Shown here one piece after another: positions 1 through 20,178 of a DNA stretch of 64,000 nt. A program made the position numbers and the translations under genes. The stretch covers positions 25,793 through 89,792 of the forward strand of contig CAKQMH010000003.1 in assembly GCA_934254915.1 (NCBI GenBank), in the 5' to 3' direction. Source of the DNA: an uncultured Alphaproteobacteria bacterium (lineage in GTDB: Bacteria; Pseudomonadota; Alphaproteobacteria; RF32; CAG-239). Each line of letters starts with the position of its first letter. Position 1 is the first letter of the stretch. The notes below the pieces were generated by a model. That model was not told where the DNA came from. It made no database searches and saw only the letters and a program-made list of their open reading frames with translations.

Positions 1-400
1 ATAAATTTCTAATACTGGTTATTTGGTTTATATCCATATTTTTATCATCAACATCACCTCTTTTTTGTATCCTATTATAAATAGTTTCAGGGGCAGCATC
101 CAATAAAACAACTCTACCGCCTCGTTTATGTAGCATTTGCAATAATTCTGAAAAATCTTGATCGGAAAGGCGAGAATATCCTCTTTTTAAAGGCCCATAA
201 ACCATTTCAGATATAAATGAACGATCTAAAACAATATTATCTCCGTAATCTTTTGATAATATTCTTTGATATTTCTCTTTTATTGATAGATGAGAATCGT
301 AATTAAAATGCAGCGATTTGTATCCTCGATGAATAAGTAAATTTGCTAAAGTTGTTTTGCCAACACCATCACATCCCTCTAATATAATAAAGTCACTCAT
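1..400 (-). CDS. Thymidylate kinase-like dNMP kinase, N-terminal part (gene continues past the left window edge)
   Basis: Hand translation of the reverse strand gives MSDFIILEGCDGVGKTTLANLL...DRSFISEMVYGP... with no stop before position 1. EGCDGVGKTT is the Tmk-type P-loop. The ATG at 400-398 overlaps the TGA of the upstream gene (ATGA), indicating translational coupling. Not in the ORF track because it is open at the window edge. Confidence 0.55.
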   Translation of the reverse strand, partial: MSDFIILEGCDGVGKTTLANLLIHRGYKSLHFNYDSHLSIKEKYQRILSKDYGDNIVLDRSFISEMVYGPLKRGYSRLSDQDFSELLQMLHKRGGRVVLLDAAPETIYNRIQKRGDVDDKNMDINQITSIRNL

Positions 401-1179
401 CGTTGGCATCCTTTTATCATATTTAAGGGAATACCTGCTTTTAATAGAGGACATTCATTAGGCTTGTGGTTATTACAAAAGTGGCGTTTATAGTTAATCA
501 TAACTAAATGAACCCACCATGTTAAAGGTTTATCTTTGGGTAGTTTTATGTTTTTATCATACCCTAGTTTTGTTGCTATTTCCAACCAGTCGTGAGATTT
601 TGTAAAATCTTCTAATTGCGCTCGAACTGTTTCATGAGCAATAGCATTTTTTCCTGTTTTATAACCCAAACAAGGAGCTAGCATATCTTTCATACCACTA
701 TCAACAGGCATAACTCCACAGTAATATCCCTTTGCATATAAAACACAACATTGTCCAACTTTATACGAAGCTCCATCAACATTTTTTGCAATATCTGCAA
801 TCATTTCTAAATTAGATATGTTTTTAATATCCTTAAATTTTAAATTATTATCTATATAGCGACTCATACTTCTGACAAACTTTATTCTTGTATCAGGTAA
901 TCCTAAAGGCCTCAGCATTACTTTCAAATCGTCGTCTGATGTTTCTTTTATTTCTTCATAAGAGTGCATTAAAAAATTATTGATAGTCTTAATGTAACTG
1001 CCTAGCATTCGAAAAGATACTCTCGTACTTAAACCAGCAATAAGCATTTTCATGCGCCAGTCATCAACATCTTTAGGCCACCAAGGGTTGTTATCATGAG
1101 ATTTTATAACAGCATATTTTACTTCTGGTTGAGATGCCATAATCTCTATAGCTTTTATCTGTTCATCTTTACGCATCAC
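397..1179 (-). CDS. HhH-GPD superfamily (endonuclease III-like) base-excision glycosylase fold protein
   Basis: 260 aa. The segment ...IADIAKNVDGASYKVGQCCVLYAKGYYCGVMPVDSGMKDML resembles the helix-hairpin-helix plus Gly/Pro-Asp motif of Nth/MutY-type enzymes, with the Asp in PVDSG. The C-terminal Cys-rich tail (C-x7-C...C) is not the canonical EndoIII FeS loop. AT-rich codon usage. Confidence 0.45.
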   Translation of the reverse strand: MMRKDEQIKAIEIMASQPEVKYAVIKSHDNNPWWPKDVDDWRMKMLIAGLSTRVSFRMLGSYIKTINNFLMHSYEEIKETSDDDLKVMLRPLGLPDTRIKFVRSMSRYIDNNLKFKDIKNISNLEMIADIAKNVDGASYKVGQCCVLYAKGYYCGVMPVDSGMKDMLAPCLGYKTGKNAIAHETVRAQLEDFTKSHDWLEIATKLGYDKNIKLPKDKPLTWWVHLVMINYKRHFCNNHKPNECPLLKAGIPLNMIKGCQR

Positions 1180-2693
1180 TAGTTTCCTTTAATAATCTCA
1201 CCTTTTAATAATTTAGGTTCAACTGTATCTAATATTTGTATGCTATAATTATCATAAGGAGTTAGTTTTTTATTTTCAATCATAACTTTTATAGAGCATG
1301 TTCCTAAAGCTCTTAGATAAGATGCTCCATTTTCAAAAACCACTTCTCTAAATGATTTCAATTGTCTACCAATGGGGTAAACTCGTTTTTGCATCGGAAT
1401 GACAAAATTTGTCATGATATCATTTTTACATCTAGAGTAGTACTCAATGTCTTCTTTAATTTGAGAAGATATTACACCTTCAGCAGGTGTCATGTATCGA
1501 TAAAATAACCTGTGTGTTTGTAGTTGGTTTTGATAAATTCTATTCAAAAATTCCATATTAATTTCATGTGTTTTTTCTGTTTGTCCGGGCAATCCATGCA
1601 TTAAATTAATTCCTGGTAAAAATTTTGGGAAACCCTTTGGGCCAATTTCGGCACCATATTCATTTATTATTTCAATAGCATTTATTATTTTATCAGCACT
1701 ACCATAGATGTGTGTAGCTTTTCGAACACTATCATCAAACGATTCTATTCCAAAAGGAGCAACATTACCATCGGTGCAATTTTCAACAACTAATTTAACA
1801 AATTCTCGTCCATGAGGCTCAACAACACTATTCATGTTTACATTATCAATATGTAATGTTTGAATATCTGTTCCAATTTCTCTTATTCCATAAAGTAGTT
1901 TCCTTAGTTTTTCTATAGAATTATATTGATAATGGAAGAAATTGGGCTGTCTTCCTAACCTAAAATGTCTTACTCCACTTTTATAAAGAGCGGTTATTTG
2001 TTTTACTATTGAAATCGGTTCTCTATACGATGGACGAATGTGCCTTTTAGCTTCTATACAATAACTACAGGTTGGAGTGTTGCAACCTGTTCCTGTTTCA
2101 ATTTCAGCAAGAATGGGATAATTTAATTGTTCAATTATATGAACTGGTTGGCTAGAAATTTTATCTAACAATTCATAATTCGGTAATAAAAAATTACCAG
2201 TGGTAGAATTTTCTAATACAAAACGATAAGTGTTTCCTATACATACGGTATCAATGATTTTTGCCAAATGAGAACTTTGGTATGCTGAACAGACATTATT
2301 TTCAATTCCTAAAACATAAAAAAGTATTTTTTTTGCCTTTGTATTATTTAGAAAAGTATAAACTTCTTCAATAGAAGGTGGCTCACAAGAAAAATACTTA
2401 TATTCAACAAAACATCCCATGATAATATAAATTGTTTCGGCATTTTTAATAATGTCTAATGCGTAAGGTGCATTTTTTGTCTTATTTAGAATACGAATGT
2501 TAGTATTTTCTGCTTCTTTTTCACCATTGGCAAACCTTAAGTCATCGATAGTAAGGTAAGAAAATGCTTCATTTTTATAACTTAATGCTTGTGATAAATG
2601 TATTTGATGAGTACCTAAATAAGGTCGAGCACCATATCCAGATGGTTCATCTGTATAACAATCTAAGATTATAGTTTTATTATATTTTGTCAT
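1179..2693 (-). CDS. Radical SAM superfamily enzyme with non-canonical CX4CX2C motif and an N-terminal extra domain of about 190 aa
   Basis: 504 aa. The reverse complement of 2041-2100 encodes ETGTGCNTPTCSYCIEAKRH, a three-Cys cluster in the glycine-rich context typical of radical SAM cores. A G-rich SAM-binding-like region follows (VAPFGIESFDD...). Start and stop overlap the neighbouring genes. Confidence 0.6.
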   Translation of the reverse strand: MTKYNKTIILDCYTDEPSGYGARPYLGTHQIHLSQALSYKNEAFSYLTIDDLRFANGEKEAENTNIRILNKTKNAPYALDIIKNAETIYIIMGCFVEYKYFSCEPPSIEEVYTFLNNTKAKKILFYVLGIENNVCSAYQSSHLAKIIDTVCIGNTYRFVLENSTTGNFLLPNYELLDKISSQPVHIIEQLNYPILAEIETGTGCNTPTCSYCIEAKRHIRPSYREPISIVKQITALYKSGVRHFRLGRQPNFFHYQYNSIEKLRKLLYGIREIGTDIQTLHIDNVNMNSVVEPHGREFVKLVVENCTDGNVAPFGIESFDDSVRKATHIYGSADKIINAIEIINEYGAEIGPKGFPKFLPGINLMHGLPGQTEKTHEINMEFLNRIYQNQLQTHRLFYRYMTPAEGVISSQIKEDIEYYSRCKNDIMTNFVIPMQKRVYPIGRQLKSFREVVFENGASYLRALGTCSIKVMIENKKLTPYDNYSIQILDTVEPKLLKGEIIKGN

Positions 2694-3417
2694 GATATTC
2701 TCTATAATAGATTAAAGCTTTATTAAATTCATTTTGTAAAAATGATAACGAGTTAGAGCAGTTTGTTTGATTCTTTATATATACAATAGGTATCTCTGTC
2801 TCTTTAATACTAATAATGTTATCTGGCACATTTAAAACATCCTTCTTATAAACCGTATTCATTGTTTTTTCAGAAACTAAATGTCCTCCATTTTTATATC
2901 TATTTAAATTACGCTCTTTCCTTATTGCTAAAGGGGCATCAATATCTATTATTAGTGAGTTTTTTAATAAAAATGATGGCACAGTCTGGCATAAATAATT
3001 AAAAGATATAGGATATACATCCTGATCATTTATATCAAAAAAATGGTTATATTTAGGATCACTACCTCTGGAAAATTCAACAACAGTGTAGTCAGAATTT
3101 ATCTGTTTACCTAAAATTGTTAACACGATATTCCAAACAATGGGATTATCAATTAAGTATCCCCCCTGATTATTAGGGTGGCTATAAAAACAAGGAACTT
3201 CTTGATCATAGTACATATCTATACCATTCTCTTTTACAAATTTCCAAAACTCTTTCAGTTTATGTTGATGCAATAATTTATCTGCGGTAAATATTTTATA
3301 TAAAGGAACAGCATCATCTAATACAGAATACTCTGGATGTAAACTGCATATGGCTTGACCCATTGATGATTTACCGCTGCAAGCTGGACCTATTATAAAT
3401 ATTAAATTGGGTTTCAT
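2680..3417 (-). CDS. P-loop NTPase / nucleotide or nucleoside kinase-like protein
   Basis: 245 aa with Walker A IIGPACSGKSS at the N-terminus. Size and layout resemble small-molecule (nucleotide or nucleoside) kinases. Overlaps the radical SAM gene by 14 nt. Confidence 0.5.
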   Translation of the reverse strand: MKPNLIFIIGPACSGKSSMGQAICSLHPEYSVLDDAVPLYKIFTADKLLHQHKLKEFWKFVKENGIDMYYDQEVPCFYSHPNNQGGYLIDNPIVWNIVLTILGKQINSDYTVVEFSRGSDPKYNHFFDINDQDVYPISFNYLCQTVPSFLLKNSLIIDIDAPLAIRKERNLNRYKNGGHLVSEKTMNTVYKKDVLNVPDNIISIKETEIPIVYIKNQTNCSNSLSFLQNEFNKALIYYREYHDKI

Positions 3418-4252
3418 CTTTTTTATCCATCTTCTGTATTGTATTTTTGGCTCTGCTAATTTCTATAGATTTATTTCTTAAATGGAGGTTCCCATAATCT
3501 TGAACAGATATACTGGCCATAGCTAATGCTTGGTAAACTGCTTCATTTAAATTTTTGCCATTGAACGAAGACAAAAAGCTTCCGAGGAATGTATCTCCAG
3601 CACCAACTGTGCTAACAACATCATCTGTTTTGATTGTTGCAAAGTATTTTCTTTCGTTTCCTTTTCGGTAGAAAACTCCTGTCATATCAGTAGTAAATAT
3701 TGATAAACTTTGAGGTAATGAATCAATTAAGCCATTACGTTGCATAATTATAAATTCATTGTCATTACAAAATAAAAAATCAGCCTTCTTAAGGCAAGTT
3801 GATAATTCCGGTAAAAAATCTTTTATACTAGACCACATAACATCTAAAGAGTAATATTGAGCATGAATCTTGTTCATAGCATCAATAAAAGGAACGCCCT
3901 TTCTGCATGATATATGCAAATAGTCCGCAGTTAATTGTTCCGGTATAATTATAGGTGCATAAACATTATTTATTAAGGAAATCTTATTATTTATCTCATC
4001 AATATTAAACGAATTCGTTTTATTTTCATATTTTTGTATGTGTCGTGTATCTATACTTAATTTATCCAATGCATCTATAGGAAAGTCATAACCTATGCTT
4101 GATATTATAGATATTTCTTTATTTCCGGATAAACTTCCTGCAATAGCTGCATTCACAGCACTTCCTCCGATTACATCCTTCGTTCCTTGATGAGTTATGA
4201 TACGGTCAATCGAAGAATTGCCACAGAAAATTAATTTATCTTTTATGCTCAT
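3371..4252 (-). CDS. PfkB-family carbohydrate/nucleoside kinase (ribokinase-like)
   Basis: 293 aa. N-terminal GG motif (VIGGSAVNAAIAGS) and C-terminal anion-hole motif (VVSTVGAGDTFLGSF), both PfkB signatures. Confidence 0.7.
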   Translation of the reverse strand: MSIKDKLIFCGNSSIDRIITHQGTKDVIGGSAVNAAIAGSLSGNKEISIISSIGYDFPIDALDKLSIDTRHIQKYENKTNSFNIDEINNKISLINNVYAPIIIPEQLTADYLHISCRKGVPFIDAMNKIHAQYYSLDVMWSSIKDFLPELSTCLKKADFLFCNDNEFIIMQRNGLIDSLPQSLSIFTTDMTGVFYRKGNERKYFATIKTDDVVSTVGAGDTFLGSFLSSFNGKNLNEAVYQALAMASISVQDYGNLHLRNKSIEISRAKNTIQKMDKKDETQFNIYNRSSLQR

Positions 4253-4832
4253 TTATATACCAATTAACAAATTTTTGGATGCTACCATTAGCACCGGCAC
4301 GTCCATAATACTCAGAAACTTCTTGTTCAGAAAGCTCACAAAGATTTTTATTATATTCTTTTAAATATATTATTTTCCATAACTCAGACCATGCATATGG
4401 TGATTGAATATCAATTTTTTCTTTTGATATTTCAAAATCTCCACCCTCGCGTTCAAATTGAAACAAGATACCGTCTTTATTAACGAATGTAGTGACACTT
4501 ATGAATTTAGCGGTTCTGTTTTCAATGCCTTGCATTAATTTTAAAATACCATCAGCACCTAATGTTTTCAAAACATATTTGGTATAAACTCCCGGAAAAC
4601 CTTTTAATTCAAATACGGAAAATCCACCATCTTCTACTAAAACGGGTTCTTTTAATATCTCAAAAGCTTTTAGCGCCTTATATTTTGAAACCTCTTGAAC
4701 AGTATCAAATTGAGGTTCCATAATATCTAAGTTTTGCGCACATATCTGCACATCAATATTATTAACTTTTAAACTATTTTCTAGTGATTTTATTTTTCCT
4801 TTATTGGACGTAATAAAATTAATCTTATTCAC
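4236..4832 (-). CDS. Ham1/ITPase-family non-canonical NTP pyrophosphatase (RdgB/Maf-like)
   Basis: The ORF-track ORF runs 4236..4937, but the family motifs start at VNKINFITSNKGKIKSLE, followed by VLVEDGGFSVFELKGFPGVYTKY. A GTG at 4832-4830 is preceded by GGAGG (complement of 4839-4843), giving a ~199 aa product typical of ITPases. Confidence 0.7.
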   Translation of the reverse strand: MNKINFITSNKGKIKSLENSLKVNNIDVQICAQNLDIMEPQFDTVQEVSKYKALKAFEILKEPVLVEDGGFSVFELKGFPGVYTKYVLKTLGADGILKLMQGIENRTAKFISVTTFVNKDGILFQFEREGGDFEISKEKIDIQSPYAWSELWKIIYLKEYNKNLCELSEQEVSEYYGRAGANGSIQKFVNWYINEHKR

Positions 4833-5175
4833 GCATAACCTCCACAGATACTGCCATAATAGAATATTTTTCGATATCTGAATTTGAAAACCATTGCTTG
4901 ATATTAAAATATGCAGAATTGTAATCAGATTCGCCAAGATCTTTCAAAGAAAATTTACGTATTAATGAATTAAGATCTCTGGATATTCTTATATTCTTAA
5001 CCAAAAGAGAGAGACTCTCATTATTTTTATTTAATAAATTGAAACTATCATTAATGGATAAACCAGAGCGTTTCTCATCGCACAAATAAAACTTTACGTT
5101 TTTTTTGCTCTTTTTAATTTTTTCAAATGTTATATCATCAACAATAGAAGAAAATTTGCACATTAAATCTCCCAA
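4825..5175 (-). CDS. Hypothetical small protein (first gene of the island operon)
   Basis: 116-aa AT-rich ORF. Its 3' end contains the SD of the ITPase gene. No recognisable motifs. Confidence 0.3.
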   Translation of the reverse strand: MGDLMCKFSSIVDDITFEKIKKSKKNVKFYLCDEKRSGLSINDSFNLLNKNNESLSLLVKNIRISRDLNSLIRKFSLKDLGESDYNSAYFNIKQWFSNSDIEKYSIMAVSVEVMRE

Positions 5176-5452
5176 ACTTTTTCTACATGATATTATTAAA
5201 AATAAAAAAAATCAATATTTTTCAAAAGTTGACACAAGTAGTTCAGCATTACTTCAATAAAAAGGTATGTATGCGATAGCTTTAGTAAATTTTAGTAAGT
5301 ATAATAAGGTGTTTGTTGAACATTCAGACTATACCAAGTATGTTGAAATCAAAGACGACAGCAAATTTATGGATGTTAACTTCCCGAGCGATGTTGAAAA
5401 AGTTTCCAAGAAAAATAAGTGAGTTAACAACCAAGGCCGTATCAGAGCCGCA

Positions 5453-5911
5453 TTACTTCTCTAAAGTTATATATTCGGGCGGAATAATACCGCCTTTGAT
5501 GACAACCAGATAATAAGGTACAACGGCAAACCGCAAGCCAAGTTTTTCATCACAAACCGACCAATCCACCGGAGAAGTATCAATATCGCTGATTGACGCT
5601 AATTTTATCAGACGTTCATCAATATCATGCGGAAGATCTTTATCTAAATTCGGACGGATTGCCGGACTGACATAAACTGCTTCAATCAGGCCGTCTTTTT
5701 GTAAAGCCATTAAATCAATAGAAAATAAATCAGCATTATCAATAAAAGGCTTGAACATATTGATGCTTTTGTCTGTCCATTGTATCGGTTCTGAAAAAAC
5801 CGCGAATGGCACGGCTGCGGCCGTTAAAACAAGATTCCATATCAGAATTGTGGGGCAAAAGCACTGTCCAAGATTATAAAAAGGATATATAATCGGTTCG
5901 CCAAAACACAA
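5453..5911 (-). CDS. Hypothetical protein (possibly a gene fragment)
   Basis: 152-aa ORF in a short patch of core-like GC between the AT-rich operon and the IS remnant. Hydrophobic N-terminus. No family recognised. Confidence 0.25.
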   Translation of the reverse strand: MCFGEPIIYPFYNLGQCFCPTILIWNLVLTAAAVPFAVFSEPIQWTDKSINMFKPFIDNADLFSIDLMALQKDGLIEAVYVSPAIRPNLDKDLPHDIDERLIKLASISDIDTSPVDWSVCDEKLGLRFAVVPYYLVVIKGGIIPPEYITLEK

Positions 5912-6260: not shown

Positions 6261-6389
6261 TATTTTTACGAAAAAACAAACGAACTGATGACAGATTTTT
6301 TATAATTTTTTTTACTCTGCCTCCAACTTTTACGATGAGCCCCTAAAGATACAAAAAAGTCTCCGTATTTCTACGAAGACTTTTCTTAT

Positions 6390-6465
6390 TGGTGAGCTCG
6401 GGCGGGTTCGAACCGCCGACCCTTTGATTAAAAGTCAAATGCTCTACCGACTGAGCTACGAGCCC
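6390..6465 (-). tRNA. tRNA-Lys (anticodon UUU), CCA encoded
   Basis: The reverse complement reads GGGCTCGTAGCTCAGTCGGTAGAGCATTTGACTTTTAATCAAAGGGTCGGCGGTTCGAACCCGCCCGAGCTCACCA. It has a 7-bp acceptor stem with one G-U pair, a GGTTCGAA T-loop and a CTTTTAA anticodon loop. Its 3' end faces the AT-rich island. Confidence 0.9.
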
Positions 6466-7027: not shown

Positions 7028-8704
7028 TTGCTGATGATTATAAAGCTGTTTATCTTTCTGCTGGCATTATCTTTCTTAGCTTTGGCATTTGCGCCCAAAC
7101 GCGGCCTGCGCTTGTGGTCATCGCTCTTTGCGCTTGCGGCGGTTATACTTGCCGTGTGGGTGGCCGGAAATCAAACCTCCGGCATTTTTGCTTCCTATGT
7201 GCATCCCTGGTTGAGCTATGGCAAACTGAAAATATCGTTTAATCTGACCGCCGATTCTTTAGGCCTTAAAACCTTAAGTGCCGTTTTGGCGCTGGCAGCC
7301 TTATTGATTTATTACAATACAATAGCCGCGGTTGACAATTTCCGCCCTCGTCTTAACGGTATTCTGCTGTTGAGCGTTGCCGGGTTTATGCTCTTGTTTT
7401 CCGCTCATGATTTTGTTCAACTTATGATCGGCAGCTGCCTTTATACGGTGCTTGGATTTTATTTGTTGGATGTGGTTGCCGGCAAACGAAAATATTTGTT
7501 TTATAATTTTATCGGTGAAATGGCGCTGTTTACGGCTTTGGCCGTGGTTTACGGCAGTGTCGACAGCGTTAATTTGCCGCAGGCATTGTCTCGCTATCAG
7601 GATTACGGGCAGCATCGCGATTTGGTTACCCTGTTGGTGTCGTTGGCGCTGGTCATAAAATCCGGACTATTCCCGTTCCAAAATCAGTTTCAGGATAATC
7701 GCGGCTTGTCGTTTAGCCGGATTATTGCCGTTACCGCCATTTTAAATCCGCTGGCTTCCCTTGTGCTGCTGCTCAAACTGTCACCATTGCTGCATGCATC
7801 AGCATGGGGTGTTACGGCAATGACGGCGGTTTGTGTGCTTTCGGCACTGTGGGGCGGTGTCGGTATGTTGTTGATTGACAACCTTAAAGCTAAAGTACTT
7901 TACCTTAACCAGAATATTATTGCGTTTATGGCGGTACTGTTGCTGACCAATCCGGTGTCGTTTCCGATTCTTCTGACTATGGTTTTGCCGATAATGGTAA
8001 TTTTGGATTATTTGTGGAGCTTGGTTTATATTTCAGCTTCAAATGAAGTGTATGTTTCGCAAATGGGCGGTTTTGTTAAGTTCTTGAAACTTGATTTGCT
8101 GCTTTTGTGGGGCGGAATTTTAACCTTTGTGCGGATAGCCGCCAATCAGGAATGGTCGAACCTGAAATGGGCTTTGCTCTTTGTCATTACCGCTCTGGTT
8201 GGGTTAGCCCACATTTGCCGCCAAATATATTTTGGGGCGCATCATGCTGATGAACGGGTAGAGGCTTTGTTGCACAATGCTCCGATTCGCACCTGGTTGC
8301 CTCTGGTTGCGGCTATGGCCGTGTTGTGGTATGTTAACACCGCTCCGGCCGTTGACGGCTTCGTTTATGGCGGTGTAGGCTTGTTTGCGGTTGTTTTGCT
8401 GCTCAATCCATTTAAACGGTTAATGCACATGGCCGACAGCGAAATTCAAGATGCTGACGGGGTTGAACAACTGTTCCGGTTTAGTATTTTAATGCCGATA
8501 AAGCTGTTGGGACGAATTTTGTGGATTACCATTGACTTTTTGTTTATTGAACGCACGATTATCGGCTCGGTTTCAGCCTTGAATAATTTTATGGTTAATG
8601 CCTTGCACCGTATTCAAAATGCTGTCTGGCTCAATTATCTGCTGATGGTAGGCTTAGGTGCGGCAATAATGCTTTTTTACATAGGACGGAGTTATTATGA
8701 ATAG
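7028..8704 (+). CDS. nuoL: NADH-quinone oxidoreductase subunit L-like antiporter-type membrane subunit (short form)
   Basis: 558-aa polytopic membrane protein. The motif FVQLMIGSCLYTVLGFYLL...FYNFIGEMALF is loosely NuoL/MrpA-like. Position upstream of clear nuoM-nuoN. Confidence 0.55.
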   Translation: MLMIIKLFIFLLALSFLALAFAPKRGLRLWSSLFALAAVILAVWVAGNQTSGIFASYVHPWLSYGKLKISFNLTADSLGLKTLSAVLALAALLIYYNTIAAVDNFRPRLNGILLLSVAGFMLLFSAHDFVQLMIGSCLYTVLGFYLLDVVAGKRKYLFYNFIGEMALFTALAVVYGSVDSVNLPQALSRYQDYGQHRDLVTLLVSLALVIKSGLFPFQNQFQDNRGLSFSRIIAVTAILNPLASLVLLLKLSPLLHASAWGVTAMTAVCVLSALWGGVGMLLIDNLKAKVLYLNQNIIAFMAVLLLTNPVSFPILLTMVLPIMVILDYLWSLVYISASNEVYVSQMGGFVKFLKLDLLLLWGGILTFVRIAANQEWSNLKWALLFVITALVGLAHICRQIYFGAHHADERVEALLHNAPIRTWLPLVAAMAVLWYVNTAPAVDGFVYGGVGLFAVVLLLNPFKRLMHMADSEIQDADGVEQLFRFSILMPIKLLGRILWITIDFLFIERTIIGSVSALNNFMVNALHRIQNAVWLNYLLMVGLGAAIMLFYIGRSYYE

Positions 8705-10127
8705 TCCTTTTGCTTTATTATCTCTGATTGTGGCGATTCCGTTTTTAGGCTTGCTTTTTGTCCTTACGGCCAAAGGTGACGAGAACAATGGTCGACACAA
8801 TGCTTTCAATGTCTGCGTTTTTACTATTTTGGCCAACATCGTGATGCTGTTCCGCATTTTTATGCTGCTGGATGAAAATTCGCAGAAACTTCAGTTGTTG
8901 GAACATTTTGACTGGCTGAATGAACCGAATGTCAATATTCTGTTCGGGGTAGATACTTTTTCGCTGATTTTGATTTTGGCGGTGCATATCGCGGTTTTAA
9001 TCGGTTTGTCAGGTGTTAAAAACAACACTTTTAAGCAAAAATCCCTAATGGCATATACGTTGCTGTTTTTGAGTATGATTACCGGTCTTTTCGTGGCCGC
9101 GGATATTTTTTCTTTTTATATCTTTTTTGAGGCCATGTTGCTGCCGTTGTTTATGATTATCGGAATGTTCGGGGCTGTCCGCAAACAGGAGCTGATATAC
9201 CGTTTCTTTCTCTACAACCTGCTTGGTGCGTTGGTGTTGTTCAGCGCAACCATGCTGATTTATCATTTCCACGGTTCACTGACTTTGGAACAATTGGGCA
9301 AATTGCGGCTTAAAGGTTCGTTGGCATATTATATTTGGGGCGCGGTATTTTTATCTTTCCTGTCGCGTATTCCGATTTGGCCGTTTCACTATTGGATTTC
9401 ATCAATTAATGCCAACATTCGCAACCCATTGGTTTTTATAATCACCGTGCTGATGCCGTTGACATCGATTTATGGCTTTATTCGCTTCCTGCCGCTCAAG
9501 TTTTCGGCGGTTACGGATGTATATATAATTTGGGTAAGCATTATTGCCGTGATTACCATGCTTTTCATTGCTCTTATCGGGTTTATTAACAAAGACAGCC
9601 AGTATAAACTTTTCTCTTATGTCACGGTTTATTATCTGATGTATTTATTGAGCGCTTTTATGCATGATGTTCTGATTTTGCAAAATGTCGGTTTTTCGTT
9701 GCTTGGTTTTATGCTGATAGTTGCTTCACTGGAGGTCTTGTCCGGCTATATCGCGCAAAAGGAGAATGAATACGGAACAACCGGAACCGGATTTTTGTGC
9801 CGTGTACCGCGGTTGTCGTTTATCTATTCTTATTTAACTTTGGCGGCGGTCGGTATGCCGTTGTCGGCAATTTTCCTGCATAACTTTTTAATATTGTCAA
9901 AGCTGCTTTCTTCCAATATTAAAATGGGTATGGTTCTTATTGCTTCATTGGTTTTGGTCGGCGCGTCGCTGTTGCAGGAACTTTATCAGCACAAAGTTGA
10001 TAATCCCGAATGTCCGATTATCCGGCGGGATGATATTTCGCGGCGGATGTTTGTCTTTATGCTGTTTGTCGGCTTTGTTTTGTTAATGTCGTTTGTCAAA
10101 CCATTATGGTTTGTGATTAATGAATAG
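8697..10127 (+). CDS. nuoM: NADH-quinone oxidoreductase subunit M
   Basis: 476 aa. FYIFFEAMLLPLFMIIGMFG...RFFLYNLLGALVLF matches the conserved NuoM/ND4 core. Overlaps the upstream gene by 8 nt. Confidence 0.75.
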   Translation: MNSPFALLSLIVAIPFLGLLFVLTAKGDENNGRHNAFNVCVFTILANIVMLFRIFMLLDENSQKLQLLEHFDWLNEPNVNILFGVDTFSLILILAVHIAVLIGLSGVKNNTFKQKSLMAYTLLFLSMITGLFVAADIFSFYIFFEAMLLPLFMIIGMFGAVRKQELIYRFFLYNLLGALVLFSATMLIYHFHGSLTLEQLGKLRLKGSLAYYIWGAVFLSFLSRIPIWPFHYWISSINANIRNPLVFIITVLMPLTSIYGFIRFLPLKFSAVTDVYIIWVSIIAVITMLFIALIGFINKDSQYKLFSYVTVYYLMYLLSAFMHDVLILQNVGFSLLGFMLIVASLEVLSGYIAQKENEYGTTGTGFLCRVPRLSFIYSYLTLAAVGMPLSAIFLHNFLILSKLLSSNIKMGMVLIASLVLVGASLLQELYQHKVDNPECPIIRRDDISRRMFVFMLFVGFVLLMSFVKPLWFVINE

Positions 10128-10135
10128 GAGGCAAA

Positions 10136-11560
10136 ATGTTGCAAAATTGGTTTATAATGCTTCCTGAGCTGTTGTTGTTGAGTTATTTGCCGTTAGCCTG
10201 GTTAGTTAAAGTTTGCCGTTCGGGACAAACTTACAAAACCTTTTATACTCTAAGCAAATATTTTTTGTCGGCCGCTTTGGTCTTTAATATCATTTTTTAT
10301 AACAAAACGGTTTTTGCGTCGCTGTTGCTTAATACAGCCGCGGCATCTTTATTTAAGACAATTGTATATTTGGCGGCGCTGGTTTGGTTTTATTTGTCGT
10401 CGAAGTGGTTTTTGAACAAAAGCCGCTCCTCGTTCGGTTTTTATCAATTGGCGGTTTCGGGAGTGTTGATTCTGGAACTGCTGATATCATCGCATAACCT
10501 GATATTGACGGCAACACTGTTGACGTTAGGCTGCTTGTTGGTTTGGGCAATGCTTAATTTGCATTGGGATAAAAATGCGATTAAAGAAATTTCCGTTCTT
10601 TATGCTTTTTTTGCCGTAATTTTTCTGATTGCACTATGGATTGGCATCATAATGTTGGCTTATCACCGCTTTCCGATGGATTATGCGGCGGTAAGGGATT
10701 GTATCAATGATAAGACGCTTGACGAAGGCTGGCTTTATGTCGTTATGGGACTGACTTTGGCACCGGTTTTGTTTATGTTGGGATTAGCTCCGTTTCATTC
10801 TTGTCTGGTAGGTGTAATCCGCTCTTCAATCCTGCCGGTCAGTGGCTATTTAACCTTGGTCTTTCCGGTTTCGTTATTATGCGTCTTGCTCAATTTGGTA
10901 TCACAGGTCTGGAGCAACGCTTTGGCGGTTGTCAGTCCGTTATTGCTGGCTTTTGCCGTAATCTCGCTTGTTTTGGGGGCATTATCCGCCAATGGCGAGA
11001 AAAACCTGCGACAGCTGTTTGCCTTCAGCAGCATTTATCATTTGGGTTTTATGTTCTTTACGCTTGTCAGTTTTAATGCTAATTCATTGCTGAGCGCGTT
11101 TACCTATATTGTCATTTATTTATTGTCAATGTTGGGGATTTACACGGTCTTTTTAGGCTTAAAGAGCCGCGGTAATTATTTGACGGATGTCGATGATATT
11201 GACGGCCTGTCGTTATCCAAGCCCTATATTTCGGTCAGCTGGCTGATATTTATGGTTTCGCTCATCGGGTTGCCGCCCATGCTTGGTTTCTTGGGCCGAT
11301 TATCCGTAATCAATAATTTGGTCTTGGAGGAGCGTTGGGGTAGTGTAATATGTTTGTTATTGTCGCTTTTGTTTATTGCCAATGCTTATTTACAGCTGAT
11401 TCGCCACATCTATTTTACGCCCGTTGTTAAGTCGTTTGACCGTGCCGATAAAGCTATTTATTTGTGCTTGTTTGTCAATCTGCTGCTGGTTTTGATTTCG
11501 ACGCTCAATCCTGAATTTTGGCTGCGCAGTGCCGAACATATTTTGAAAGGAGCGTTTTAA
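10136..11560 (+). CDS. nuoN: NADH-quinone oxidoreductase subunit N
   Basis: 474 aa. ...LGALSANGEKNLRQLFAFSSIYHLGFMF matches the NuoN/ND2 motif. Confidence 0.7.
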   Translation: MLQNWFIMLPELLLLSYLPLAWLVKVCRSGQTYKTFYTLSKYFLSAALVFNIIFYNKTVFASLLLNTAAASLFKTIVYLAALVWFYLSSKWFLNKSRSSFGFYQLAVSGVLILELLISSHNLILTATLLTLGCLLVWAMLNLHWDKNAIKEISVLYAFFAVIFLIALWIGIIMLAYHRFPMDYAAVRDCINDKTLDEGWLYVVMGLTLAPVLFMLGLAPFHSCLVGVIRSSILPVSGYLTLVFPVSLLCVLLNLVSQVWSNALAVVSPLLLAFAVISLVLGALSANGEKNLRQLFAFSSIYHLGFMFFTLVSFNANSLLSAFTYIVIYLLSMLGIYTVFLGLKSRGNYLTDVDDIDGLSLSKPYISVSWLIFMVSLIGLPPMLGFLGRLSVINNLVLEERWGSVICLLLSLLFIANAYLQLIRHIYFTPVVKSFDRADKAIYLCLFVNLLLVLISTLNPEFWLRSAEHILKGAF

Positions 11561-11561
11561 T

Positions 11562-12320
11562 ATGCCTGAAATCGGAAAATGGCAGTGGTTTGATTATGAT
11601 GATGCGGACAGCACTAACGATACCGCTTTAGCGTTAAGCCAAAATCCGCCGGCAGAATATTTTGTCGTAACCGCCAAACGTCAACACAACGGACGCGGCC
11701 GCCGCGGCCGCAGTTGGATAAGTCAGGAAGGCAATTTATTTATGAGCCTTGGATTGCCTTTTGATATAAATGATATTAATGCGTTGGTCTTCATTACGGC
11801 TTTGAGTCTGTTTGAAGCTGTAGCTTCGCAATCGCCGCAGGGTTGCTTACAACTCAAGTGGCCTAATGATGTTTTATTTAATAATCAAAAAATTTCAGGA
11901 ATTTTACTTGAAAAAGGTTTTCAAAATTATATAATCGTCGGCATTGGTGTAAATATTTTGACATCGCCGAGCCTGAATGACCAGCTGTTATATCGTTCGG
12001 CAAGTCTGCGCAGTGCCGGTATCAACATTAATCGTGTTGATTTGATGTTGCTTTTCCTTTCCTGTTTTGACCGTAACTTATCATTGTGGCGTGAGCAAGG
12101 ATTTGCGCCCATTCGTATCAAGTGGCTGCAAAATGTTAAAGGTTTGGGTGAGGATATTGTGGTAAATAACGAAAAAAACTCGCGCCGCGGTGTGTTCGCC
12201 GGGTTGGATGAAAACGGCGCGTTGTTGTTGGATGAAAATGGCAAAATAAGCAAAATTTGGGCCGGTGATATTTTTTATCAAACCGACCATAAACAAAGAG
12301 ATAAAGTTACTGATGAATAA
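11562..12320 (+). CDS. birA: Biotin--[acetyl-CoA-carboxylase] ligase (group I, no DNA-binding domain)
   Basis: 252 aa with the KRQHNGRGRRGRSWISQEGNLFMS biotin-ligase signature (GRGRxGRxW). Confidence 0.85.
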   Translation: MPEIGKWQWFDYDDADSTNDTALALSQNPPAEYFVVTAKRQHNGRGRRGRSWISQEGNLFMSLGLPFDINDINALVFITALSLFEAVASQSPQGCLQLKWPNDVLFNNQKISGILLEKGFQNYIIVGIGVNILTSPSLNDQLLYRSASLRSAGININRVDLMLLFLSCFDRNLSLWREQGFAPIRIKWLQNVKGLGEDIVVNNEKNSRRGVFAGLDENGALLLDENGKISKIWAGDIFYQTDHKQRDKVTDE

Positions 12321-14100
12321 AGAAGAAAATCAATTGGAATTTAGTTTTGACCCTGTACCCGCACAAACCGATAATAAGGCCGCAAGCGGTAATGTTGCCG
12401 GCTTAAATCGGGAAGGAATATATTTTGTTGCTTTAGGCGGTGCCGAAAAAGTCGGTATGAATATGTATGCTTACATTGTCGATGGTAAAATAATCGTGGT
12501 CGATGCCGGTTATGACTTTTTGAATGATGACTTTCCCGGTATAGATTTAGGCCTGGCCGATGCTTCATTTTTAGAAAACTATCAGGACTGCATTGAGGCT
12601 TTGTTTATTACTCACTCGCATGAAGACCATTTTGGTGCTATTGCTCACATTTGGCCGCGGCTGCAATGTCCGGTTTATGCCACGGATTTTACTTTGGGAC
12701 ATATTGTTCAACGTCTGGCGGAATATAAATTGGACAAGTTGGTCGATTTACATTCGGTAAACGATAACCCGATTGTCAAGTTGCCGAATTTTACGGTTGA
12801 ATATGTTCCGGTTGCCCATTCGCTGCCCGAAAATTCGGCTTTGGTGATTCATACCCGATACGGCACGATTTTTCATGCCACGGATTGGCGTTTTGATGAT
12901 CAGCAGATTTCGTTTATGAAAACCGACTATCAACGTTTGGAAGAGCTTGGACAGGAAGGGATTGATCTTTATGTCGGCGATTCTATCCAAATGGGGCATA
13001 ACAGTGCTTCACAACCCAGTGAAAAAGAAATCAGGGATAATCTGATTACGATGATGCCGCGGTTCAAAAACACGCTGGTTGCTACTTGTTTTGCCTCTAA
13101 TATCGCCCGTATGGAGAGCTTAATTCTGGCGGCTCACGCGGCCGGACGTACGCCGGTTATTGCCGGTATGAGCCTGATTCAAAATATGAAAATCGCCAAA
13201 GACTGCGGCTTTTTGCCTGATTTGCCGCCTTATGCCGAGGCTAAACAGGCTATGGATATTCCGCTTGATAAAATGTTGTATATCTGTGCCGGTTCGCAAG
13301 GCAATTATCGCAGCGGTCTGACGCGTATTGTCAATGGCGAAAATAAGGATATCAAACTTGGTAAAGGCGATGCGATTATCTTTTCTTCGCAGATTATTCC
13401 CGGAAACGAGGAAAAAATTGAGCGTATGCAGGAAAAATTGCGAGATGCCGGGGTCGAGGTCATTTCATGTGAAGAATATCCGGTTCATACTTCCGGACAT
13501 GGTACACGTTCTGATGTGGCCAAAATGTTTTCTATTCTGAAGCCGCATACGGTTATTCCGGTGCATGGAGACAAACGTTGTATTCGGGAGCAAAAACGTT
13601 TTGCCTTGGAACATGGCATCGAAAACGTAATTGTTGCCCGCGATGGCGATGTTGTGCGGATATATAATCATAAAGCCGAAATTGTAAGCCAAGTTCCGAC
13701 GGATGAATTGGGTGTTGACCGTAAACAGGTTATCAGCCTTGGCTCGCAGGTCATCAAAAATCGCCGTCGTATTGCCTATAACTGCAGCTTGTATATCAGT
13801 GTGGTATTAAATGAGGATTGGTCTGTTGCCGATTTACAAATTTCCTCGTTGGATATTTTGGATGAAGCCTCGTTCAAGGTTTTGGCTGATGACATTAAAA
13901 GCGAAATGCTGAAAACCATTCCGGCCGAAATTGTGAAACTCAATTACCGTATTCCGCAAATCAAAGAATATATTCAGGCCAAGATTAGAAAAATGGTTTA
14001 TAAGGCAACGGATATCAAACCGGTTACAACCATGCATTTTTTCAAACAAGGAATGATTGCGGCTGCCGACAGCGGCGAACCGGAAACCGTTGAAGCTTAG
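12312..14100 (+). CDS. rnj: Ribonuclease J
   Basis: ITHSHEDHFGAI (metallo-beta-lactamase HxHxDH), a beta-CASP region and VHTSGHG. The probable start MNKEENQ at 12312 overlaps the birA stop (ORF track 12265..14100). Confidence 0.85.
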
Positions 14101-14765
14101 ATTTCAAAAGTCATACCTTGACGCAACACTCCGCCCAGTCCCGATTTGTGGGCAATTTGGCAGAGCGTTTCATAATCTTTGGGCAGGTAGTGCGATACAA
14201 AAGTTTTAGCTTTTATTTCCGGCTTGGCGGTGCTTAACTCATCAATTCCGACAATTATCCCGCCGCCTTTAAGGCTGACATCGTGGATAATCATCTTCGC
14301 TTCGGCCGCGGCTGCGGAATCTAAAATCGAAATCGCACTGTCGCCGCTGTACAAAAGAGTGTGATTAATGAATAACGCATAACAATCCATACCTTTGGCA
14401 TGCGGCACTGTAAAACAATCAACGTGTATATCATCGGGCAGGGGCATAACCTTCTCCTGCCAGCCGTTTCCGGAGTGCAACTCCAAAAAGCGGCGGCAAT
14501 CAGTTCCGCCCAATGCGGTTTTAAGTCCCAAAATTTTGTACCGATAATCCAACAGATTAACCACCGATCCGCAATGATCCTGATGCAAATGACTGATTAG
14601 AACCGTGTCGATTTTGTCGGCATAGCCTTTTTGGCGCAATTCCTGATAAACACTGAAACCGCAATCCAGCAAAATTCCACTGTTATTGTTTTGCCATAAG
14701 ATAAAAGAGTTGGTTACTCCTTGCGCCGCAAATGCGGCATTAGTGCCTAAAACTTCCAGTCGCAT
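14097..14765 (-). CDS. MBL-fold metallo-hydrolase
   Basis: 222 aa with the HLHQDH motif and VLGTNAAF at the N-terminus. Confidence 0.55.
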   Translation of the reverse strand: MRLEVLGTNAAFAAQGVTNSFILWQNNNSGILLDCGFSVYQELRQKGYADKIDTVLISHLHQDHCGSVVNLLDYRYKILGLKTALGGTDCRRFLELHSGNGWQEKVMPLPDDIHVDCFTVPHAKGMDCYALFINHTLLYSGDSAISILDSAAAAEAKMIIHDVSLKGGGIIVGIDELSTAKPEIKAKTFVSHYLPKDYETLCQIAHKSGLGGVLRQGMTFEI

Positions 14766-18992: not shown

Positions 18993-19090
18993 TTTTGTTG
19001 TAAATGTATAAAATAAGCAAAATCAACCAGTTAATAAGTGGTATTATAATACCACTGTCTAATTATTTGTAAAATAATGAAATTTTGTTG

Positions 19091-19118
19091 TTGACTTTAG
19101 TTATCTTTCCTGTATATT
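19091..19118 (+). promoter_or_regulatory. Candidate sigma70 promoter for rplM-rpsI
   Basis: TTGACT at 19091-19096, a 16-nt spacer, then TATATT at 19113-19118, about 40 nt upstream of the rplM start. Confidence 0.35.
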
Positions 19119-19158
19119 CACAGCCGAATAATAACCTTCTTCAAAAAGAGAGAAAACT

Positions 19159-19623
19159 ATGAACACATATGCAACAAAACCCTCTGACATTCAGAGAAAG
19201 TGGTATGTAGTTGACGCTAATGGAGTTGTTTTGGGCCGTCTGGCTGCTGAAATCTCTAAACTCTTGCGCGGCAAACACAAACCCAACTATGTTACCAACC
19301 TTGACTGTGGTGACTATGTCGTTGTTATTAATGCTGACAAAGTTAAATTGACCGGCAAAAAACTGACCGATAAAAAATATTTCAAACACACCGGTTGGAT
19401 TGGCGGTATCAAGGAAACAACTCCGGCTAAGATTTTGGCTGGCAATTTCCCGGAAAGAGTTATCATCAAAGCTGTTGAACGTATGATTTCTCGTAACCCG
19501 ATGGGTCGTCAACAAATGACCAAGTTAAAAGTATACGCTGGTGAAAATCATCCTCACACAGCACAAAACCCTGAAGTTCTGGACATTGCTTCCATGAACC
19601 CGAAGAATAAAAGGAGCGCATAA
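19159..19623 (+). CDS. rplM: 50S ribosomal protein L13
   Basis: [20 protein letters not shown]... is a canonical L13 N-terminus. 154 aa. Confidence 0.95.
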
Positions 19624-19625
19624 CC

Positions 19626-20114: not shown

Positions 20115-20115
20115 T
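20082..20115 (+). repeat. Direct repeat copy A1 (rpsI 3' end)
   Basis: GCTCGCCGTTCTTACCAATTCAGCAAACGTTAAT recurs at 24434-24467 with 2 mismatches, including an exact 19-mer. Confidence 0.8.
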
Positions 20116-20148
20116 CTACGTTGCAAAAAAATATCAGATATTTTCAAT

Positions 20149-20178
20149 GGGTTGCAAGGAATTGCAGCCCATTTTTTT
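20149..20178 (+). terminator. Rho-independent terminator (imperfect) after rpsI
   Basis: GGGTTGCAAGGAATTGCAGCCC followed by ATTTTTTT. Confidence 0.45.

Follow-up and report, generated by a model that had tools for sequence, protein, structure and literature searches.

The 504-aa protein encoded at positions 1179-2693 on the reverse strand of the analyzed DNA is a genuine radical SAM enzyme belonging to a small, uncharacterized family. Its gene is central to a mobile, strongly conserved eight-gene pyrimidine-nucleotide cluster of uncultured gut and rumen bacteria. The whole stretch of DNA that was analyzed, referred to below as the window, comprises 64,000 nucleotides.

Identity and cluster-binding motif

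The gene is an ORF of 504 amino acids with an ATG start. The cluster-binding motif, C204-NTPT-C209-SY-C212 (CX4CX2C), was located by translation and alignments at 2058-2084 (-), with the cysteine codons at 2084-2082, 2069-2067, and 2060-2058. It lies within the peptide ETGTGCNTPTCSYCIEAKRH, which contains GCNTPTCSYC and is encoded at window positions 2040-2099 (-). The original prediction had placed this peptide at 2041-2100, a range that is one base off and whose frame gives stop-rich nonsense. The protein matches the Pfam Radical_SAM family (PF04055) with an E-value of 3.7e-10 and 40.7 bits, above the gathering score of 29.5, and has 1387 database homologues at E≤1e-3. The three cysteines are invariant in an alignment of 25 homologues, in another of 68 sequences (mean column identity of 50%), and in a third of 32 sequences that goes down to 24-40% identity. 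Because of the above-threshold Pfam match, the number of homologues, and the invariant cysteines, the protein cannot be regarded as a chance match. Together with the barrel of the structural model described below, these results bear out the earlier description of a radical SAM enzyme with a CX4CX2C motif at 1179-2693.

The gap of four residues between the first two cysteines had been singled out as non-canonical. The gap is indeed four residues in this protein, but the loop between Cys1 and Cys2 varies from X3 to X9 across the family. Four is one value within this range, and the CX4 spacing is consequently not diagnostic by itself. In the profile alignment to MiaB, the cluster loop is aligned, MiaB shows a one-residue gap between Cys1 and Cys2, and the 'LGRQPN' strand of the radical SAM protein stands opposite 'LGQNVN' of MiaB. 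A literature search on the CX4CX2C spacing brought up only OxsB and an unnamed RadicalSAM.org megacluster (4-11) as sharing it.

Domain architecture and fold

The AlphaFold model of the protein, with a pLDDT of 92, is composed of three domains: a Rossmann-like domain at approximately residues 1-190 (window 2124-2693, -), the radical SAM core at approximately residues 191-440 (1374-2123, -), and a five-stranded TRAM-like barrel at residues 441-504 (1182-1373, -). The core is modeled as a partial (beta/alpha)6 TIM barrel, the fold expected of a radical SAM enzyme. The model shows the C204/C209/C212 loop, one residue longer than the canonical one, placed to hold the SAM-binding [4Fe-4S] cluster on this barrel. 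The N-terminal region of about 190 residues, previously described as an extension, is real and is the best-conserved portion of the protein (DCYTDEPSGYG, TIDDLR, MGCFVxYxY). It is, however, a Rossmann-like domain rather than an extension, and the C-terminal barrel had not been included in that description. The conserved acidic loops of the domain are DxYTDEP and TIDDxR. As modeled, its fold corresponds to that of the N-domain in methylthiotransferases and in B12-radical SAM enzymes, and the three-domain fold with a C-terminal TRAM barrel is the one present in methylthiotransferases.

The top full-length structural matches are the cobalamin-free enzymes RimO and MiaB, over approximately 394 residues. 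Fold similarity to MgmA, TsrM, and CysS is also high, and the cobalamin-free AprD4 is nearly as near as MgmA. A fold search of BFVD with the model returned only methylthiotransferase-like and B12-like matches, at TM values of about 0.5. Among the folds suggested earlier for comparison, RimO and MiaB are the closest and the B12-radical SAM folds are near; the protein does not show the viperin features, namely a compact single domain, a C-terminal NTP-binding extension, and a PADLOC pVip match.

Family placement and distribution

The best NCBIfam matches of the protein reach 16-31 bits against cutoffs of 251-400, and eight distant family members likewise approach no NCBIfam cutoff. A single-sequence search found no close relative in the PDB, and a profile search reached MiaB with an E-value no better than 5e-5. 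Among 1.84 billion proteins, the family is confined to 290 representative clusters at E≤1e-3, which form a compact island. These results agree with the earlier view that no named radical SAM subfamily can accommodate the enzyme. A search of the full-text literature found no account of the family or of the operon, and no characterized homologue.

The protein belongs to the 500-aa bacterial branch of the 'radical SAM superfamily enzyme with C-terminal helix-hairpin-helix motif', a JGI label given to its close homologues; the labeled group is presumably COG1031. Homology to the 560-600-aa relatives ranges from about E 1e-58 to 1e-23, and in P0179, P0185, and P0190 the best stretch corresponds to query residues 6-474. 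Full-length homology at 24-36% identity connects the window protein with both the longer relatives (560-700 aa) and archaeal homologues of about 500 aa from DPANN and Methanosarcinales MAGs. The N-domain motifs DxYTDEP and TIDDxR are common to all of them, as are the barrel motifs and a Cys loop of variable length, and both groups are uncharacterized. The helix-hairpin-helix (HhH) motif (PF12836/PF00633) occurs only at the C-terminus of the longer relatives, whereas the chain of the window protein ends directly behind the beta-barrel. Basic proteins are found among the archaeal homologues and among distant family members (median pI of 9.3 versus 7.5). The HhH tail of distant members, which is of a DNA-binding type, and their basic pI, along with the similarity of the C-terminal barrel to the RNA-binding TRAM domain, suggest that the ancestral substrate may be a nucleic acid and not a free nucleotide. 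The partner genes described below are found in 0/11 archaeal loci, which indicates that the enzyme's own reaction is not strictly partner-dependent.

Across Alphaproteobacteria MAGs and one Gastranaerophilales MAG, the protein is 75-92% identical. The hosts are mostly reduced-genome, host-associated, or episymbiotic organisms, including gut and rumen Alphaproteobacteria MAGs, 'Tenericutes'/Bacilli MAGs, and CPR. No phage member was found by tblastn against 50,697 phage genomes, a scan of IMG/VR yielded nothing but distant, unrelated radical SAM cores at about 26% identity, and PHROGs contained no match for either the radical SAM enzyme or the endonuclease III-like protein of the operon.

The operon and its conservation

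All operon genes in the window lie on the reverse strand. The first encodes an ASCH-like small protein of 112 aa (4825-5163; phrog_19935 'RNA-binding protein', 1e-8), which occurs in the Alphaproteobacteria/Gastranaerophilales operon type. It is followed by a Ham1/RdgB-type non-canonical NTP pyrophosphatase of 198 aa (4236-4832, an L001 gene call; PF01725 at E 3.3e-22, NF011396 at 113.6 bits, under the cutoff of 203) and by a PfkB-family, ribokinase/nucleoside kinase-like kinase of 293 aa (3371-4252; PF00294 at E 2e-22, GAGD motif), whose best NCBIfam matches, ribokinase and nucleoside kinase, are all under cutoffs. A P-loop kinase-like protein of 245 aa (2680-3417), which represents a novel family, shares 14 nt with the start of the radical SAM gene. 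No kinase family could be assigned to it, the Walker A region alone being recognized (AAA_33/AAA_18), and the Bacilli/Clostridia form of the operon carries it as a C-terminal fusion to the PfkB domain. On the other side, an endonuclease III-like HhH-GPD protein of 260 aa (397-1179) has a start that overlaps the radical SAM stop codon. Its closest fold is that of endonuclease III, which acts as a glycosylase on damaged pyrimidines, and it has kept both the catalytic Lys and Asp and an intact HhH hairpin. The gene for a dTMP-kinase-like and HAD pyrimidine 5'-nucleotidase protein is cut by the window edge after its first 133 codons (2-400) and is complete in L001. Translation of 2-400 (-) gives the P-loop ILEGCDGVGKTT and a DRSFIS motif, both of the TMPK type. 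The protein matches phrog_761 thymidylate kinase (3e-24) and exceeds the TIGR01993 pyrimidine 5'-nucleotidase cutoff (143.7 bits versus 142.9), while TIGR00041 dTMP kinase, at 44.8 bits, is under its cutoff. A further partner, maleate-isomerase-like, matches maleate cis-trans isomerase at E 5.5e-21 and has two invariant cysteines.

Conservation was counted over 27 bacterial loci, all of them non-redundant and each with 6 kb or more of DNA on either side of the radical SAM gene. The maleate-isomerase-like and dTMP-kinase-like genes are present in every one of these (27/27 each), the endonuclease III-like and PfkB genes in 26/27, the P-loop and HAD genes in 25/27, and an NTP pyrophosphatase, either Ham1 or MazG, in 24/27. 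The association of the partners with the radical SAM gene holds down to 36% radical SAM identity. Domain fusions also join the partners to each other (PfkB with P-loop, kinase with HAD, endonuclease III-like with kinase). Ham1 and MazG-like enzymes interchange between operon types, as do two different pyrimidine nucleotidase families, and the NT5C partner scores over its Pfam cutoff. It had been proposed that the radical SAM protein is the most likely chemistry-performing enzyme of the island, and this wording is reasonable, since its gene is the constant center of the conserved operon. The flanking genes are mostly housekeeping and differ from locus to locus.

The operon moves as a discrete, horizontally mobile cassette. 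A 120-nt direct repeat marks the cassette boundary, with one copy at 5308-5427 and the second beyond the left edge of the window; in L001, where the cassette itself is placed at 7531-14074, the copies lie at 7267-7386 and 14157-14276, differ at a single position, and have sharp borders. The cassette has a GC content of approximately 30% in a 43% GC genome, and the drop in GC coincides with it. No flanking repeats were found at related alphaproteobacterial loci. The possibility that a 152-aa ORF beside the repeat is a diverged copy of the neighboring gene was ruled out.

Proposed pathway

With a probability judged slightly short of even, the enzyme would perform the radical step of an undescribed pathway that modifies pyrimidine (deoxy)nucleotides, operating without an auxiliary cluster and building a non-canonical deoxynucleotide. 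In such a reaction, SAM would be reductively cleaved to the 5'-deoxyadenosyl radical, and a pyrimidine (deoxy)nucleoside phosphate, bound at the interface of the N-domain and the barrel, would lose a hydrogen atom to this radical. An auxiliary cluster of the methylthiotransferase type would not be involved. Judging from gene context, this would be the committed step of a mobile pathway of seven to eight genes leading from a pyrimidine nucleoside or nucleotide to a non-canonical pyrimidine deoxynucleotide. The two-cysteine maleate-isomerase-like enzyme, whose gene is always adjacent, may handle the radical product, by isomerization, epimerization, or decarboxylation beside a carboxylate or carbonyl. 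Three kinases (PfkB, P-loop, and dTMP-kinase-like) would raise the nucleoside through successive phosphorylations, and the Ham1/MazG pyrophosphatase and the pyrimidine 5'-nucleotidase would cut back or clean up the pool of nucleotides. The same base would also be the target of the endonuclease III-like protein, either in DNA or as a free nucleotide.

The identification of the substrate as a pyrimidine nucleotide is read from the neighboring genes alone. The pyrimidine and deoxy character is suggested by TIGR01993, NT5C, the phrog thymidylate kinase, the TMPK-type motifs, and the endonuclease III fold of the partner. The Ham1 family, however, is typically purine-directed, which counts against a pyrimidine substrate. 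A more specific version of the scheme is a cellular, non-phage pathway that builds a new non-canonical pyrimidine deoxynucleotide at the free-nucleotide level for host DNA. In this version, the radical SAM and isomerase-like enzymes would modify the base or sugar, for example by folate-independent C5 alkylation or radical deoxygenation, and the endonuclease III-like protein would police the form of the base in DNA. It is considered improbable in this detailed form.

Alternative readings of the enzyme

The structural similarity to RimO and MiaB, together with MiaB-like best matches in NCBIfam and among PDB sequences, could point to a divergent methylthiotransferase that inserts a methylthio group. 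Methylthiotransferases are recognized by a UPF0004 N-domain with three conserved cysteines, and these ligands of the auxiliary cluster are absent here. The bacterial clade has only two N-terminal cysteines, the invariant C12 and C94 (at least 90%), and at both positions the wider family has other residues, mostly Gly. No third N-terminal cysteine was found in the 68- and 32-sequence alignments, where the position after strand 2 is TIDD. The protein scores 19.2 and 31.2 bits against TIGR00089 and TIGR01578, whose cutoffs are 251 and 314.7. Compared with RimO, MiaB, and MtaB, the Cys loop is one residue longer in this protein, and its genomic context consists of nucleotide enzymes, not translation-related genes. 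With the auxiliary-cluster ligands missing, this reading is effectively refuted and has hardly any probability left. Another idea considered was a Cys2Asp-ligated auxiliary cluster, since C12, D50/D51, and C94 topologically occupy the sites of the methylthiotransferase ligands. It was dropped in view of the poor conservation of C12 and C94 across the wider family, and such a cluster is conceivable for the bacterial clade only. The Rossmann-like N-domain could instead bind cobalamin, which would make the protein a class B radical SAM enzyme catalyzing methylation or an OxsB-like nucleotide rearrangement. Family members do give sub-threshold matches to the B12-binding radical SAM families TIGR04013 and TIGR04014, and OxsB, which acts on deoxyadenosine phosphates, likewise has a CX4CX2C motif (PMC9204698). 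Against this, and in contrast to the class B enzymes MgmA, TsrM, CysS, and TokK, no B12-binding domain or motif is detected in the sequence: PF02310 gives no match and no DxHxxG is visible in the N-terminal region, in whose case the original prediction had likewise noted no obvious cobalamin-binding motif. The closest full-length folds are cobalamin-free as well, and many of the hosts (CPR, DPANN, reduced Bacilli) rarely make cobalamin. A class B enzyme is regarded as unlikely.

Other alternatives concern the direction of the pathway and the nature of the substrate. The pathway may run in reverse, as salvage or sanitation of an exogenous or damage-derived modified pyrimidine nucleoside, a possibility to which a minor but appreciable probability is given. 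PfkB would capture the nucleoside, the radical SAM and isomerase-like enzymes would strip or repair the modification to give a canonical pyrimidine nucleotide, the pyrophosphatase and nucleotidase would bar the modified form from the dNTP pool, and the endonuclease III-like glycosylase would excise it from DNA. The hosts fit this idea, as reduced-genome and episymbiotic lineages depend on nucleoside salvage; so do the house-cleaning families (Ham1, MazG-like, pyrimidine 5'-nucleotidases) and the retained catalytic Lys and Asp of the endonuclease III-fold partner. Three dedicated kinases, however, are difficult to justify if the triphosphate pool should exclude the modified species, and the operon has no conserved adjoining transporter. 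The cassette is accessory, with the radical SAM gene truncated in some strains, which is neutral on this question. By analogy with phage thymidine hypermodification and spore photoproduct lyase, the enzyme might act on DNA or RNA, in post-replicative base modification or in anaerobic lesion repair together with the endonuclease III-like and P-loop kinase proteins. The basic, HhH-tailed relatives of 560-700 aa, the match of the C-terminal barrel and overall fold to nucleic-acid- or protein-modifying MiaB and RimO, and the intact HhH hairpin of the partner are all consistent with this, and phages offer a precedent in which a radical SAM enzyme works on DNA together with a P-loop kinase and an HhH glycosylase-like transferase (PMC8989533). 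The bacterial proteins, however, have no HhH tail and a pI near neutral, their partners (pyrimidine 5'-nucleotidase, dTMP-kinase-like, NTP pyrophosphatases, PfkB) come from free-nucleotide families, one of them at equivalog level, the endonuclease III-like and P-loop proteins do not match the phage aGPT-Pplase or 5-HMUDK families, and no member of the radical SAM family was found in the searched phage genomes or IMG/VR. The probability of a nucleic acid substrate is low. A role in anti-phage defense, in which a viperin-like toxic or chain-terminating nucleotide analogue would be made upon infection from a triphosphate provided by the kinases, is very improbable. The mobility and low GC of the cassette would suit it, viperin genes often adjoin nucleotide kinases, and a WYL-domain regulator lies upstream in Lachnospiraceae loci and a DNA methyltransferase with a UvrD helicase upstream in one locus. 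On the other hand, none of the seven operon proteins examined matched a PADLOC model, the neighbors are mostly housekeeping and variable, and eight genes including a nucleotidase and a glycosylase far exceed known nucleotide-analogue defense systems in elaborateness.

Comparison with known systems and significance

Among characterized enzymes, AprD4, the radical SAM 1,2-diol dehydratase of apramycin biosynthesis, shares 13% identity with the window protein; AprD4 acts on an aminoglycoside, and the operon described here contains no conserved partner reductase. The substrate of OxsB is a 2'-deoxynucleoside phosphate. In oxetanocin A biosynthesis, the phosphohydrolase OxsA removes phosphates from the product of its partner OxsB, and the presence of Ham1/MazG and a nucleotidase beside the radical SAM enzyme follows a similar logic. 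Phage thymidine hypermodification employs the kinase 5-HMUDK, aGPT-Pplase, the radical SAM isomerase gp53, and a decarboxylase; the same functional classes (P-loop kinase, HhH glycosylase-like, radical SAM, and decarboxylase/isomerase-type) are gathered around a thymidine-like pyrimidine (PMC8989533). However, no homology between the two systems was detected, the phage steps take place on DNA, and the phage radical SAM enzyme is spore-photoproduct-lyase-like, whereas the enzyme described here is methylthiotransferase-like.

Radical SAM enzymes acting on nucleotides, such as viperin, OxsB, QueE, and MoaA, have each opened a field, whether antiviral nucleotides, nucleoside drugs, or cofactors. 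The present family is compact and well defined, has no characterized member, and comes with a high-confidence model and an operon context that consistently indicates pyrimidine deoxynucleotides and is kept from gut Alphaproteobacteria to CPR. The conserved cluster of nucleotide enzymes around it makes the radical SAM enzyme a good target in the search for new nucleotide chemistry. At approximately 7 kb, the operon is small enough to be synthesized and expressed, so that its product should be directly identifiable. Once identified, this product would allow hundreds of metagenomic proteins, and perhaps their archaeal relatives too, to be assigned a function.

Radical SAM Gene and Family Placement

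Translation of window positions 1179–2693(-) gives an ATG-initiated ORF of 504 aa, in which the peptide ETGTGCNTPTCSYCIEAKRH is coded by positions 2040–2099. The original prediction had read this peptide correctly, but its range of 2041–2100 was one base out of frame. The cluster motif, C204-NTPT-C209-SY-C212, has the spacing CX4CX2C. The Pfam model Radical_SAM covers residues 198–378 with 40.7 bits (E 3.7e-10; gathering score 29.5), and a search among 5.8 billion proteins returns 1387 homologues at E<=1e-3, with a length of 496–534 aa for nearly all of the 120 matches listed. Three alignments, with 25, 68, and 32 sequences, show no variation at C204, C209, and C212, and the 32-sequence one extends down to 24–40% identity. 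Consequently, the predicted radical SAM ORF with its CX4CX2C motif is confirmed, and the observation is real, far beyond chance. Among members of this family, the Cys loop ranges in spacing between X3 and X9, mostly X4, X5, and X7; CX4 is therefore one state of the loop and not a signature, and the X4 spacing by itself is a minor curiosity. CX4CX2C also occurs in OxsB (PMC9204698) and in an unnamed megacluster in RadicalSAM.org (PMC9477430).

The view that the protein cannot be placed in a named radical SAM subfamily holds: no curated NCBIfam model claims it, the best matches reaching 16–31 bits against cutoffs of 251–400. Scanning 1.84 billion representative proteins exhaustively with phmmer yields only 290 clusters at E<=1e-3, so the family is small and sharply bounded. 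Close homologues carry a JGI label naming a radical SAM superfamily enzyme with a C-terminal helix-hairpin-helix (HhH) motif. This motif (PF12836/PF00633) is present in relatives of 560–700 aa, while the window protein stops directly after its C-terminal beta-barrel.

Protein Fold

Structure prediction, proposed earlier as a check, places a radical SAM barrel in the middle part of a confident AlphaFold2 model built from 68 sequences (pLDDT 92, pTM 0.92). The same model has a Rossmann-like alpha/beta domain at about residues 1–190 and a five-stranded beta-barrel at residues 444–500. The N-terminal region of about 190 aa is thus present as predicted, but it is not an extension: it is a conserved domain with a fold like the N-domains of methylthiotransferases and cobalamin-dependent (class B) radical SAM enzymes. 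In the wide family, its invariant positions are D11, E16, P24, Y46, and R53 (loops DxYTDEP and TIDDxR), and those of the core are the three cluster Cys, R245, G247, D283, N284, E317, R395, and R399. A profile search of PDB sequences finds MiaB (E 5e-5), and the alignment gives MiaB a gap of one residue between the first two Cys; compared with the methylthiotransferase loop, the X4 spacing thus contains one inserted residue.

C12 and C94 of the window protein lie at the ends of strands 1 and 3, the places where methylthiotransferases put their auxiliary-cluster ligands. Both are conserved in the bacterial clade only, the alignments having mostly Gly elsewhere, and the family alignments contain no third N-terminal Cys; the defining methylthiotransferase auxiliary cluster is therefore absent. 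The window protein combines a radical SAM barrel, an invariant three-Cys loop, a conserved acidic N-domain, and a TRAM-like barrel, and has no methylthiotransferase auxiliary site.

Operon Architecture and Conservation

The longer metagenome copy of the contig (L001) runs past the left edge of the window and contains a tightly packed operon with overlapping genes: ASCH-like (112 aa), Ham1, PfkB kinase, P-loop protein (245 aa), radical SAM enzyme, HhH-GPD protein (260 aa), dTMP-kinase-like plus HAD (384 aa), and Amdase/maleate-isomerase-like (209 aa). Clustering of the ORFs of 80 loci taken from species genomes gives three arrangements. The first, as in L001, is found in gut and rumen Alphaproteobacteria MAGs and one Gastranaerophilales MAG. 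The second, NT5C–radical SAM–isomerase-like–HhH-GPD–kinase–(PfkB+P-loop fusion)–MazG-like, is found in Bacilli/'Tenericutes', Clostridia, and one Dojkabacteria MAG, and the third, radical SAM–isomerase-like–(HhH-GPD+kinase fusion)–PfkB–P-loop, in Chloroflexi and Patescibacteria MAGs. Kordiimonas and Bacteroidetes MAGs have the gene set of the third arrangement with changed order or orientation. The gene fusions were confirmed by BLAST.

Partners were counted in a non-redundant set of 27 bacterial loci in which 6 kb or more of DNA flanks the radical SAM gene in each direction. The maleate-isomerase-like and dTMP-kinase-like partners are present in all 27, HhH-GPD (endonuclease III-like) and PfkB in 26 each, P-loop and HAD in 25 each, and an NTP pyrophosphatase in 24. 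The pairing is still seen in a homologue at only 36% identity. Homologues from DPANN and Methanosarcinales MAGs (32–36% identical) have partner genes in none of 11 loci, and two further distant relatives, one of them an HhH-bearing long form, stand in contexts unrelated to the operon.

Further genes lie upstream in some hosts. In Lachnospiraceae loci (L005–L008, 4742–5353), the genes directly upstream code for a transcription regulator with a WYL domain and a PfkB-domain protein of 661 aa, with a bacteriocin-type ABC exporter cluster beyond them. As read from sequence, three Bacilli/'Tenericutes' loci (L030, L031, L040) have a 251-aa ASCH-like and cytidine deaminase-like fusion, accompanied by a GNAT-like acetyltransferase, about 4 kb upstream; the deaminase-like domain gives a further pyrimidine-nucleoside link.

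Partner Enzymes

The HAD domain of the window's operon matches the pyrimidine 5'-nucleotidase model TIGR01993 at 143.7 bits, just over the curated cutoff of 142.9; an NT5C-family deoxyribonucleotidase, over the Pfam cutoff, serves the other operon type. The kinase matches phage thymidylate kinase phrog_761 (3e-24) and, under the cutoff, dTMP kinase TIGR00041, and has an EGxDGxGKTT P-loop of the TMPK type and a DR motif. The isomerase-like protein matches maleate cis-trans isomerase (E 5.5e-21) and has two invariant Cys, the isomerase/racemase pattern, one Cys being that of decarboxylases. Ham1 and MazG-like, which are non-homologous NTP pyrophosphatases, swap between operon types, and the 245-aa P-loop protein is recognisable by its Walker A motif only. 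Judged by these matches, the gene set is centred on pyrimidine, probably deoxy, nucleotides.

Cassette Borders and Mobility

The radical SAM gene sits in a segment of 30% GC in a genome of 43% GC, and in L001 the low-GC stretch has the same extent as the operon. This 6.9-kb cassette is bounded by two sharp-edged copies of a 120-nt direct repeat (L001 7267–7386 and 14157–14276) that have a single mismatch between them. One copy lies at about 5308–5427 of the window, and the other forms the 3' end of an NTP_transf_3 gene (547 aa) outside it. This looks like a cassette inserted at the gene's 3' end, with that end duplicated. No integrase was found inside the cassette. The radical SAM protein is 75–92% identical among different Alphaproteobacteria MAGs and one Gastranaerophilales MAG. 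Many near-identical relatives, including P0121, P0123, and P0131 from the 90% cluster of the window protein, are only C-terminal fragments of 203–213 aa starting near residue 300, on contigs as long as 68 kb. Some strains thus have a split or truncated gene, as would suit an accessory function that can be dispensed with. Taken together, the low-GC, repeat-bounded layout, the cross-lineage identity, and the fragments indicate that the cassette is dispensable and moves horizontally. Searches of phage genomes and IMG/VR did not find it.

Just past the repeat lies a tRNA-Lys(UUU) gene (6390–6465(-)), followed by a strong terminator-like hairpin (6353–6386); the tRNA gene separates the low-GC island from Proton_antipo_M (NADH dehydrogenase-like) membrane genes starting at 7028. 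Between repeat and tRNA gene, where GC is intermediate, a 152-aa ORF (5453–5911(-)) has no family match, nor is it a diverged version of the gene bearing the other repeat copy. Elsewhere in the window, a 224-nt direct repeat, 97% identical (23536–23759 and 25018–25241), corresponds to the 3' end of a 151-aa gene (25018–25473(-)) and encloses a 1.26-kb insert of 29% GC with a Cys-rich 127-aa ORF (24040–24423). The same insertion signature at both places suggests that cassettes enter this genome by a mechanism that recurs. Another low-GC stretch (19000–22000, 34–39% GC) holds two ribosomal-protein-like genes and several small ORFs, among them a multi-pass membrane ORF (20776–21321).

Proposed Function and Alternatives

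In the proposed mechanism, SAM cleavage would generate a 5'-deoxyadenosyl radical, which would take a hydrogen from a pyrimidine (deoxy)nucleoside phosphate. The product would next be a substrate for the two-Cys isomerase-like enzyme, the three kinases, pyrophosphatase, and nucleotidase would shift the compound among phosphorylation states, and the endonuclease III-like protein may work on the same base, in DNA or as free nucleotide. By analogy, possible bond chemistries are sugar dehydration or deoxygenation (as in AprD4 and viperin), rearrangement (as in OxsB and gp53, the radical SAM isomerase of phage thymidine hypermodification), and class B-like alkylation. The favoured direction is biosynthesis towards a non-canonical pyrimidine deoxynucleotide, because the presence of three dedicated kinases is easiest to understand if those of the host refuse the compound; confidence in this reading as a whole is somewhat less than even. 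The same enzymes could instead salvage or sanitise a modified pyrimidine of exogenous origin, which is considered rather unlikely.

Action of the radical SAM enzyme on DNA or RNA would suit the basic character of the HhH-bearing relatives and the endonuclease III-like partner, but the free-nucleotide enzymes of the operon weaken this reading and leave it doubtful. At the cofactor level, cobalamin dependence is an alternative of similarly low probability; most of eight distant relatives match B12-binding radical SAM families, weakly, and none reaches an NCBIfam cutoff. A viperin-like defence system is a distinctly improbable reading, and PADLOC defence models match no cassette protein. That the enzyme is a true methylthiotransferase can practically be dismissed, since a defining feature is lacking.

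The closest known system in logic to the operon is phage thymidine hypermodification, with its P-loop kinase, HhH glycosylase-like transferase, radical SAM isomerase, and decarboxylase (PMC8989533); no homology of the operon proteins to those families was detected. Full-text literature searches returned no published description of the radical SAM family or the operon. The original prediction is upheld in its overall finding, and its interpretation is supported. What gives the finding its value is a radical SAM family, uncharacterised but with a good structural model, that is locked into a conserved, mobile pyrimidine-nucleotide operon.
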